A stretch of DNA of 64,000 bases from Oscillospiraceae bacterium (lineage in GTDB: Bacteria; Bacillota; Clostridia; Oscillospirales; CAG-272). The DNA lies in the NCBI GenBank assembly GCA_015064015.1, contig SVTB01000001.1, positions 2,762-66,761 on the forward strand, read 5' to 3'. A program made the translations under genes and the position numbers. Below, piece by piece: positions 20,484 to 36,650 of the stretch (positions are counted from its first letter, which is position 1; the number at the start of each line of letters is the position of its first letter). The notes under the pieces were generated by a model. The model was not told the DNA's origin. It searched no databases and worked only from the letters and a program-made list of their open reading frames with translations.

Positions 20484-20786
20484 TCATAGCACCATCATAG
20501 CCGGACTCAGTCCACCCATAAGAATCCACAAAATCAAGAACACAAGGCAAATAATACCCAACGTAATGAGCATAGGCACGAACATCATTTTCACAGCGCC
20601 GAAATAAGTCGATGAACATTCCTGAAATCGATTCATGGGCTTGCCGCGCTTGGTCAGGGGCTTTTGTTTATTCGGACGGTTACCGCCCAAGCCCTTCCCT
20701 ACCGGCGACATATCCACTACGGTGGAGCCGTCATCGATCCAGGTGATCTTTTCGCACTTTTTTTTAATGTTTTTCTTTTTGCTCAT
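20484..20786 (-). CDS. small hypothetical membrane protein at the 3' end of the Opp-type operon
   Basis: 100 aa. Lys-rich N-terminus and one C-terminal TM helix (MMFVPMLITLGIICLVFLILWIL). Start is 6 nt after the ATPase stop. Confidence 0.55.
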   Translation of the reverse strand: MSKKKNIKKKCEKITWIDDGSTVVDMSPVGKGLGGNRPNKQKPLTKRGKPMNRFQECSSTYFGAVKMMFVPMLITLGIICLVFLILWILMGGLSPAMMVL

Positions 20787-20792
20787 AACACA

Positions 20793-21779
20793 TCAGGTAT
20801 CCAACAGATGGCAAGCCGCGAAGTGGCCGGGCTCGTATTCACGGTATACAGGCACGTCGGTCTTGCATCTCTCGGTGGCGTGGGGACAACGGGTATGGAA
20901 GCGACAACCCTTGGGAGGATTGGCGGGCGAGGGAATGTCTCCCTTCAGCACGATGCGCTCCATCTTCTTGTCGGGATCGGGGTTGGGAATGGCGGAAAAC
21001 AGTGCTTGGGTATAGGGATGCAGGGGATTAGAGAAGATATCTTTCTTATTACCAAACTCCACCATACTACCCAAATACATAACACCGATCTTGTCAGAGA
21101 TAAACTTAACCACCGACAGGTCGTGGGAAATGAACAGATAGGTTAGGCCCCTCTCTTTCTGCAGCTTTTTGAGCAGATTAATGATCTGTGCCTGAATGGA
21201 CACGTCCAGCGCCGACACAGGCTCGTCGCACACCACCAACTTGGGGTTGACGGACAAGGCGCGAGCAATACAGATTCTCTGACGCTGACCGCCCGAAAAC
21301 TCATGGGGATAGCGCTCGTAGTAATAATCGCGGAGACCGCATTGCTCCATGAGCTTGAGAACGTAATTCTTTACCTCGAAGGGGGGAACGATCTTATGCA
21401 CCCTGACGGGCTCAGACAGAATATCGCCTACGGTGGCTCTGGGCGGCAGGGAGGAATAAGGATCCTGGAAAATAATCTGCATCTCGGTGCGCAAGGAACG
21501 CATCTGAGAATTTTTATAGTTGGTGATATCCTTGCCGTCAAAAATGATCTGTCCTCCGCTGGCGGGATGGAGCTTTAAGATGGTACGTCCCATGGTGGTC
21601 TTACCGCAACCCGATTCTCCGACGATACCCAAGGTCTCGCCCGGGTGGAGCTCGAAGGACACGTTATCCACGGCGATGAGCTCTTGCTCTACCTTACCCA
21701 TGAGAGACTTCTTGATGGGAAAGGCTTTTCTTAAATTGCGCACCTCCAGAATGGGGGCATCATTCATATGATCAGCCAT
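20793..21779 (-). CDS. oligopeptide/dipeptide ABC transporter ATP-binding protein (OppF/DppF type)
   Basis: 328 aa. Walker A GESGCGKTT, signature FSGGQRQRI, Walker B VCDEPVSALD. C-terminal oligo_HPY-type tail GCRFHTRCPHATERC..ACHL. Confidence 0.92.
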   Translation of the reverse strand: MADHMNDAPILEVRNLRKAFPIKKSLMGKVEQELIAVDNVSFELHPGETLGIVGESGCGKTTMGRTILKLHPASGGQIIFDGKDITNYKNSQMRSLRTEMQIIFQDPYSSLPPRATVGDILSEPVRVHKIVPPFEVKNYVLKLMEQCGLRDYYYERYPHEFSGGQRQRICIARALSVNPKLVVCDEPVSALDVSIQAQIINLLKKLQKERGLTYLFISHDLSVVKFISDKIGVMYLGSMVEFGNKKDIFSNPLHPYTQALFSAIPNPDPDKKMERIVLKGDIPSPANPPKGCRFHTRCPHATERCKTDVPVYREYEPGHFAACHLLDT

Positions 21780-36550: not shown

Positions 36551-36621
36551 TTGTTCACACGCCTTTCAGGAGTTTATCATAGAAACTGCACATAACATAA
36601 AAATGTCCACACTTAATCGAT

Positions 36622-36650
36622 ATTTTACCATAAATGATTGTCAATTTCAA
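36622..36650 (-). promoter_or_regulatory. sigma-A type promoter of the giant subtilase/Opp cluster
   Basis: Minus strand reads TTGAAA, 17 nt (ending TGG), TAAAAT, about 70 nt upstream of ATG 36550. Confidence 0.55.

Follow-up and report, generated by a model that had tools for sequence, protein, structure and literature searches.

A subtilase gene and an Opp-type importer in one cluster

This study concerns a cluster of eight genes in a 64,000-nucleotide (nt) stretch of DNA, referred to here as the window, from an Oscillospiraceae bacterium (contig SVTB01000001.1, assembly GCA_015064015.1). The genes encode a giant cell-envelope subtilase, a lipoprotein that we call lipoX, the five components of an Opp-type oligopeptide importer, and a small membrane protein. 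The same block is found in every related genome examined. Therefore, it probably digests extracellular protein, and imports peptides, as one genetic unit.

An initial annotation of the window, made from the sequence alone, had placed eight consecutive genes on the minus strand, between positions 36550 and 20484. Using the list of open reading frames (ORFs), with start codons as supported by homologues, we reproduced this arrangement exactly. In the same order, the intergenic spacings recomputed from the sequence are 107, 44, 26, -8, 3, -8, and 6 nt. The genes, and elements associated with them, are listed in Table 1. Note that identical proteins are in the public record (locus tags E7645_00095 to E7645_00130), where 'hypothetical protein' is the only annotation of the protease, of lipoX, and of the binding and small proteins.

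Table 1. Genes and associated elements of the cluster, with positions in the window (aa, amino acids; SBP5, the family-5 substrate-binding lipoprotein)
Feature	Position	Strand	Remarks
Sigma-70-type promoter, TTGAAA-17-TAAAAT, TG extended -10	36622..36650	-	71 nt from -10 end to S8 start codon
S8 giant, cell-envelope subtilase, 2455 aa	29183..36550	-	Pfam and PDB relatives
GC-rich hairpin GGTCGGGGAA...TTCCCCGACC, inside the 107-nt gap 3' of the S8 stop	29109..29138	-	No T-tract
lipoX, lipoprotein, 448 aa, lipobox IAAC	27729..29075	-	No Pfam or NCBIfam match
SBP5, long-form family-5 substrate-binding lipoprotein, 859 aa	25105..27684	-	SBP_bac_5
OppB-type permease, 330 aa	24086..25078	-	BPD_transp_1
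OppC-type permease	22999..24093 (TTG start) or 24072 (ATG start)	-	OppC_N and BPD_transp_1
OppD-type ATPase, 407 aa	21772..22995	-	ABC_tran and oligo_HPY
OppF-type ATPase, 328 aa	20793..21779	-	ABC_tran and oligo_HPY
Membrane protein, 100 aa	20484..20786	-	No family match
Hairpin just 3' of the last gene	20440..20481	-	-24.8 kcal/mol; no T-tail in this genome
NAGPA-domain gene, ninth on the same strand	18171..20390/20423	-	Starts 60-93 nt past the 100-aa gene

The domains of the giant protein follow the order N-terminal signal or anchor, S8 protease with PA insert, Fn3-like domain, Ig-like region, and BspA-type leucine-rich repeat (LRR) region of the LRR_5 family. At the C-terminal end, a further domain precedes one transmembrane (TM) helix (residues ~2384-2410) and an acidic tail with a net charge of -11. 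The Peptidase_S8 match (PF00082, residues 221-696) scores 159 bits, against a cut-off of 21.8, and the assignment to this family by the initial annotation is borne out. Residues D230, H309, and S634 occur in the order of the S8 catalytic triad. Together with the oxyanion residue N402, they are invariant in 70 of 70 orthologues. As in the cell-envelope proteinase and C5a-peptidase subgroup, the PA domain (58.5 bits, residues 502-571) lies within the S8 match and an Fn3-like domain follows (fn3_5, 46.9 bits, residues 735-858). Consistent with this, the closest solved relatives of the protease head (residues ~214-876) are C5a peptidase (ScpA), SpyCEP, and cell-envelope proteinase A, with E values from 4e-64 to 1e-49. 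Among the Pfam families that were to be checked across the cluster, Peptidase_S8, PA, LRR_5, SBP_bac_5, BPD_transp_1, and oligo_HPY were all recovered. Conversely, Big_2 fell below its cut-off in the giant protein (18.8 bits), where Inhibitor_I9 was not detected at E<=0.01.

No LPXTG motif is present in the window protein or in any of the orthologues checked (0 of 70), and the NCBIfam model for 'LPXTG-anchored serine peptidase' gives a score of 259 bits (cut-off 1400). Given the C-terminal TM anchor, the catalytic head should be distal, separated from the membrane by the Ig-like region, the LRRs, and the C-terminal domain. In lactocepin, the A, B, H, and W domains similarly lie between catalytic head and membrane. 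The LRR region scores 350 bits with LRR_5, above threshold, over seven stretches. It also matches the structures 4fs7, 4gt6, 4h09, and 6mlx, as well as TpLRR and the HupY/LrrG adhesin model NF047961. This region could provide substrate capture or could equally be a stalk that spans the wall.

All hallmarks of a PepT-family (Opp/Dpp/App) importer are found above Pfam thresholds: a family-5 binder, two BPD_transp_1 permeases, one with OppC_N, and two oligo_HPY ATPases. SBP5 matches SBP_bac_5 in two stretches (95 bits) and Cys25 is invariant. It also contains an insertion of ~250-300 aa (residues ~170-430) that is mainly helical and conserved in orthologues. In an AlphaFold2 model, built from a shallow alignment of sequences with 74-100% identity, the predicted local distance difference test (pLDDT) score was 85-94 for the insertion, poor for the canonical lobes, and 56 for the whole. 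Hence, the model is too poor for its binding pocket to be inspected. OppB scores 119 bits with BPD_transp_1, and its best NCBIfam model is Opp4B (231 bits, cut-off 450). For OppC, the best model is Opp4C (321 bits, cut-off 350). OppD has an N-terminal extension and an internal insertion, and the NCBIfam OppD model matches it in two stretches. OppF is above the PRK11308 subfamily cut-off (413.5 versus 408). Thus, SBP5, OppB, and OppC all score below the NCBIfam equivalog cut-offs of characterised oligopeptide systems. SBP5 also has weaker NCBIfam matches to nickel and staphylopine binders. Judged by these family relationships, the imported substrates are probably peptides.

Two genes encode proteins of no assigned family. 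The initial annotation had labelled lipoX as a GLUG/List-Bact protein. In the window protein, we found no Pfam or NCBIfam match and, even at E<=10, neither Glug nor Flg_new. What stands of the label is a set of weak matches, all below threshold, among 31 members of the lipoX family: Flg_new (PF09479) in 15, with a best E value of 3e-6, Peptidase_M26_N in 16 (best 1e-5), and Glug (PF07581) in 4 (best 0.046). The AlphaFold2 model of lipoX (pLDDT 88) has beta-rich N-terminal repeats, followed by a C-terminal half resembling a beta-solenoid. Foldseek comparison of this model with the PDB returned nothing at E<=0.001; the weak matches, to ubiquitin-like folds and InlB B-repeats, are not significant. 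A lipoX profile, compared with PDB sequences, gave only chance matches to ribosomal protein uS3. The 100-aa protein, which also has no Pfam or NCBIfam match, consists of a basic N-terminus (net charge +10), the near-invariant motif KEKI-x-Y/W-x-DDG...DMS, and a hydrophobic C-terminal segment.

Conservation and organisation of the block

To compare gene neighbourhoods, we centred the search on lipoX, since a span of 10 kb to either side takes in the whole cluster. The query was an alignment of 31 lipoX relatives and the scan covered one genome per GTDB species. This identified 253 stretches with a lipoX relative, from which the best-scoring 80 were fetched. Each was compared with the window proteins by tblastn, with the giant protein cut into six segments. 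All 80 loci are from metagenome-assembled genomes of animal guts, labelled as Oscillospiraceae, Faecousia, Ca. Fimenecus, Clostridia, Eubacteriales and, in a few cases, Lachnospiraceae. The same eight genes, in the same order and on the same strand, occur in 80 of the 80 species-level loci, with absences only at contig ends. The gene for the 100-aa protein is at the same position in each of the 61 fetched loci that extend far enough. Two more distant loci, each with ~31% lipoX identity, gave a similar picture. One of these (L081) retains the complete block, with plsX, rnc, and smc after it. The other (L085) keeps the protease, lipoX, and SBP5 as far as the contig reaches. Hence, the adjacency of protease and opp genes in the window is retained in related genomes. 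The two distant loci come from an exhaustive profile search in which, at E<=1e-30, the lipoX family comprised 384 clusters at 50% identity.

Mean identities to the window were determined for 57 complete loci. They are 71% for the S8 head, 48% for the LRR region, 43% for lipoX, 65% for SBP5, 79% for OppB, 73% for OppC, 79% for OppD, 82% for OppF, and 43% for the 100-aa protein. Divergence is correlated between the cluster genes (r = 0.49-0.94) and, therefore, the block has been inherited as a unit. The flanks differ between loci. Downstream genes are variable. Upstream, a divergently oriented family of membrane proteins (262 aa) is found in 40 loci and a thioredoxin/4Fe-4S-type family, unlike the protein at this position in the window, is found in 23 related loci. 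Since the flanks are less conserved than the block, the conserved unit starts at the protease gene and ends at the 100-aa gene. Near the cluster are nusA, infB, and glycosidase genes and GC content is level across the window, indicating a chromosomal setting. An origin as a mobile element or island is ruled out by the GC content, level with that of the window, and by the chromosomal flanks (nusA and infB). The eight-gene unit is chromosomal, and vertically inherited, in uncultured gut Clostridia (Oscillospiraceae and relatives).

The protease gene and lipoX are fused in nine loci (L006, L010, L011, L012, L013, L016, L018, L044, and L061; about 2400-11350 in each), where an uninterrupted ORF of 2927-2995 codons, free of Ns, covers both. 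At the fusion point, the TM helix of the protease is followed by a low-complexity cytoplasmic linker, a second TM helix, and the lipoX domain. The second helix takes the place of the lipobox and the lipobox Cys is lost. Two quite different types of linker are present, which suggests more than one fusion event. The predicted topology is consistent, in that protease and lipoX parts would both be outside the membrane. Natural fusion is classic evidence for partnership, and here would point to a functional or physical association of protease and lipoX.

Where the genes are separate, the gap is usually short (<=60 nt in 55 of 64 unfused loci) and, in many species, the genes overlap. The 107 nt of the gap in the window fold at -40 kcal/mol, whereas the closest relatives have 35-46 nt here, with no notable structure. 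Across the 31 loci with a gap of at least 30 nt, 25 have unrelated strong hairpins at the junction (-24 to -44 kcal/mol) that lack T-tracts. The hairpin at 29109-29138 has no T-tail and is missing from loci with overlapping or fused genes, and so cannot be a terminator that the cluster requires. The pattern would fit an optional element for RNA stability or attenuation. Note that its GGGGAA/TTCCCC core recurs in at least one more palindrome between genes of the window (7720-7753). According to the initial annotation, a palindromic element of this kind occurs only after the last gene. While there is indeed a hairpin at 20440-20481, the element at 29109-29138 is of the same type and lies inside the cluster.

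Our data concerning transcription signals are as follows. The promoter reported ahead of the cluster is present, with a TG extension, and is the best of 17 promoter-like sites listed for positions 18000-37500. Note that the total number of such sites is no more than shuffled sequences give. Identical hexamers, at the same distance, occur in three related loci (L001-L003) and two others are similar (L006 and L019). By eye, a comparable extended -10 promoter is seen in most of 22 related upstream regions. In L001-L003, ~220 nt upstream of the protease gene are nearly identical, even though the adjoining protein N-terminus is just 64-68% identical. This points to further regulatory sites. Conserved blocks in the interval 36551-36780, 5' of the -35 hexamer, include TATTACGATATGTTTACAATTTGCTC and the palindrome AAAATATTTT. 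A search of Rfam, for positions 18000-40000, found no family at E<=1 and no riboswitch or leader. At the other end of the cluster, 28 of 61 related loci have a hairpin with a T-run in the 110 nt that follow the last gene, compared with 0 of 74 coding controls. The hairpin at 20440-20481 is the probable 3' boundary of the unit.

Over all loci, the median gaps are 21, 35, 18, 12, 3, -8, and 5 nt. The OppD-OppF value was computed from the earliest ATG. In L081, OppF (15959-17227) is called at 422 aa, with an N-terminus ~95 aa longer than that of OppF in the window, and the earliest-ATG estimates suggest longer OppF proteins in other loci too. Some internal gaps are enlarged. Between SBP5 and OppB there are 170-273 nt in L011, L012, L013, L016, and L026, and ~2.5 kb in L077; between lipoX and SBP5 there are ~1-1.3 kb in L054 and L059. 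Insertions, or artefacts of start codon or frame, may account for these. Taken together, the genes are on one strand, with short or overlapping gaps and a kept order, a promoter ahead and a terminator-like element behind. By these sequence criteria, the eight genes probably form an operon and, in this particular genome, would be read as a single transcript.

Probable coupling of proteolysis to peptide uptake

We consider it reasonably likely that the unit couples extracellular proteolysis to peptide uptake, with protein cleaved outside the cell and peptides imported. A dedicated module of this type, for cleavage by the S8 protease and import by Opp, with two accessory proteins, had been proposed by the initial annotation. 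It is backed by the strict linkage, intact active site, gene spacing, and fusions described above. In the mechanism that we propose, transcription would begin at the extended -10 promoter, ~70 nt upstream of the protease gene. Once exported, the subtilase would be held at the membrane by its C-terminal TM helix, instead of by sortase. The predicted topology puts the catalytic head (S8, PA, and Fn3) at the far end of an ectodomain, of Ig-like and BspA-type LRR segments, that might be a stalk, a substrate-binding surface, or both. Because natural S8-lipoX fusions occur, lipoX is likely to sit beside the protease base. As expected for a member of its family, the protease would cut extracellular protein to oligopeptides. 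The long family-5 binding lipoprotein would then pass these to OppBC, with import powered by OppDF, as in related transporters. The 100-aa membrane protein would be a conserved accessory.

A stronger version of this scheme is possible, although we think it doubtful. Here, all eight products would form one physically integrated machine, for digestion and import, on the Gram-positive membrane. The TM-anchored protease, lipoX, the long binding protein (via its extra helical domain), OppC and OppD in their enlarged forms, and the 100-aa protein would assemble in such a way that the protease delivers peptides straight to the importer. Perhaps the basic 100-aa protein pairs with the acidic cytoplasmic tail of the protease.

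Several observations weigh against coupled proteolysis and uptake. First, SBP5 is very divergent from characterised peptide binders. Its nearest solved relative is AppA of Bacillus subtilis, with an E value of just 1e-13 to 1e-14, and the nearest NCBIfam model, Opp4A, scores 88 bits against a cut-off of 650. Hence, peptide specificity is assumed. Second, the eight-gene unit contains neither a peptidase gene nor a regulator gene. Similarly, the CodY box (AATTTTCWGAAAATT) is not enriched ahead of the protease gene: over the 250-nt upstream regions of 70 loci, mismatches are distributed as in shuffled sequences. Third, the strong hairpin 3' of the protease gene, found here and in about a third of relatives, could attenuate read-through. 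Fourth, upstream synteny is partly retained (one family, in 40 loci) and so some of the block conservation is plain shared ancestry. Finally, all carriers found are metagenome-assembled genomes, and the loci inspected are the best-scoring 80 of 253 relatives plus the two more distant examples.

Four other explanations were considered. Specificity for the host, or for some other particular target, is in our opinion unlikely. In this case, the LRR-bearing protease and lipoX would bind and cleave particular proteins on the surface of the host or of microbes (for example, mucins, immunoglobulins, matrix proteins, or the surface layers of neighbours). Opp would only salvage the fragments, and the system would be a factor for colonisation or competition. 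C5a peptidase and SpyCEP, the closest solved relatives of the head, are indeed immune-evasion proteases. However, these matches are at the level of family only. Other properties that fit are the resemblance of the LRR region to BspA-type and HupY/LrrG adhesin models, weak matches of lipoX homologues to the N-terminal region of IgA1 protease, and the faster evolution of the LRR region and lipoX, compared with the catalytic domain (see mean identities above). Conversely, the full importer is strictly kept beside the protease in every locus, which argues that product uptake is central. Note that a target-specific protease overlaps with coupled proteolysis and uptake, and does not exclude it.

It is improbable that the cluster consists of two independent neighbours that remain together through inherited synteny. 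In this case, the protease gene (with lipoX) would be transcribed alone, to the hairpin, and the opp operon would have a separate promoter. The hairpin 3' of the S8 stop is strong, here and in 25 related loci. However, it has no T-tract, is absent in the closest relatives, and occupies a gap that is short in most species. Similar palindromes do lie between many same-strand genes of the window. Promoter-like sites can also be found inside coding sequence (for example, at 30004-29975), but their number is what shuffling predicts. Moreover, the median gap between lipoX and SBP5, of 35 nt, is too short for a separate promoter region. While part of the upstream synteny is conserved as well, the boundaries of the block coincide with the end of conservation.

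We attach still less weight to an importer for cargo other than plain peptides, with an indirect link to the protease. Family-5 binding proteins serve glycopeptides, metals or metallophores, and oligosaccharides alike, and SBP5 is highly divergent, with its large insertion and weaker matches to nickel and staphylopine binders. A phosphodiester-glycosidase gene also follows the unit in this lineage. However, this NAGPA gene is present in just ~10 of 61 loci, and SBP5, OppB, and OppC each match oligopeptide systems best (AppA and Opp4A/B/C). Obligatory linkage to a protease with an intact active site is most simply explained by peptide substrates. Finally, Opp importers of other Firmicutes carry signalling peptides, and the 100-aa gene is small and conserved, but it is scarcely credible that the protease matures a secreted pro-peptide for re-import by Opp, as in Phr, SHP, and cCF-type systems of Firmicutes, since the unit encodes neither receptor nor regulator and has no obvious gene for a pro-peptide, the 100-aa product resembles a membrane protein with a basic cytoplasmic N-terminus, unlike a secreted precursor, and a 2455-aa protease with LRRs is out of proportion to such a task.

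Surrounding genes and known systems

Other features of the window surround the cluster. The ninth gene encodes a surface protein (740-750 aa) in which the NAGPA (phosphodiester glycosidase) domain is accompanied by a PT-rich linker and, at the C-terminus, a TM helix. Because it is downstream of so few related loci, we regard the gene as a lineage-specific neighbour. Upstream of the protease gene, and divergently transcribed, 36861-39677 (+) encodes a 938-aa protein with a Redoxin/AhpC-TSA thioredoxin-like domain. The product of 41170-42636 (+) has a weak match, below threshold, to the MG3 domain of bacterial alpha-2-macroglobulin (28 bits, cut-off 34.9). This ORF, a few kb from the protease locus, could encode a surface protein resembling a protease inhibitor. 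GC-rich palindromes, perfect or nearly so, occur near the ends of ORFs at 1461-1488, 3050-3079, 7720-7753, 16485-16513, 48870-48898, 49519-49550, and 51893-51921.

The closest functional parallel is in lactic acid bacteria, where PrtP and Opp support growth on protein (PMC2827410). As the initial annotation had stated, protease and opp genes are unlinked in these organisms; prtP-prtM forms one operon and opp another, and L. lactis SK11 has them on different plasmids (PMC2827410). The logic of PrtP (lactocepin), PrtM, and OppABCDF is shared, in that a large envelope S8 protease, with PA insert and spacer domains, yields oligopeptides for a family-5 Opp system. The differences are equally clear. 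PrtP is sortase-anchored, or released in some species, whereas the protease described here has a C-terminal TM helix and no LPXTG motif. PrtM is a lipoprotein of the peptidyl-prolyl isomerase (PPIase) type. In contrast, the adjacent lipoX has no family match and hence no detectable PPIase domain, so it does not qualify as a maturase of the PrsA/PrtM type. Features added here are the single block, the BspA-type LRR stalk, a binder that is ~300 aa longer, and the 100-aa membrane protein. The locus would work like the proteolytic system of lactic acid bacteria, yet is not a member of it, since the LPXTG and PrtM features are lacking.

Comparisons can also be made for individual components. C5a peptidase (ScpA/ScpB) and SpyCEP give the best matches among solved structures over S8, PA, and Fn3. 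Unlike the protease here, they are LPXTG-anchored virulence factors with narrow substrates, no LRR region, and no importer linkage. LRR_5 repeats are shared with surface proteins of the BspA, LrrA, and TpLRR type. Those are stand-alone adhesins, whereas here the repeats are an internal segment of a protease. The five-component architecture of the importer is shared with Opp4 of Staphylococcus aureus and App of Bacillus subtilis, which provide the best models for SBP5, OppB, and OppC. Compared with these, scores are below equivalog cut-offs, the binder, OppC, and OppD have extra segments, and there is an additional small membrane protein.

Polysaccharide utilisation loci (PULs) include Sus-like systems in Bacteroidota and ABC-based 'Gram-positive PULs' in Lachnospiraceae. 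In concept, the plan is the same: a surface depolymerase, binding proteins, and a matching importer in one locus. Here, the substrate class would be protein and peptide, instead of glycan, there is no regulator gene in the block, and the components are non-homologous.

The initial annotation knew of no described operon with this composition, and our searches of full-text literature agree. We found no description of a protease-opp operon, or of a 'protein utilisation locus', in Gram-positive bacteria. Searches for subtilisin, leucine-rich repeat, and oligopeptide in Oscillospiraceae gave nothing relevant and, for Faecousia, returned ecological mentions only. Subtilisin-like proteases and Opp are abundant in A. 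massiliense; the paper concerned does not report linkage.

The locus occurs in at least 253 species-level genomes, as judged by lipoX relatives. It would thus be a genomic marker for protein-degrading capacity and offers a defined gene set. Guilt by association also gives a strong context to two new families, those of lipoX and of the 100-aa protein; for lipoX, it includes natural fusion to the protease. If the eight products did form an integrated machine, an equivalent of Sus-like PUL complexes, for the use of protein, would be widespread among uncultured Clostridia of the hindgut. The nitrogen economy of hindgut and rumen is shaped by protein fermentation, as is the output of ammonia, branched-chain acids, and other metabolites. 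To our knowledge, most of the proteolytic machinery in the dominant uncultured Clostridia lacks annotation. In these organisms, the 'protease plus Opp' strategy of lactic acid bacteria would occur as one heritable unit.

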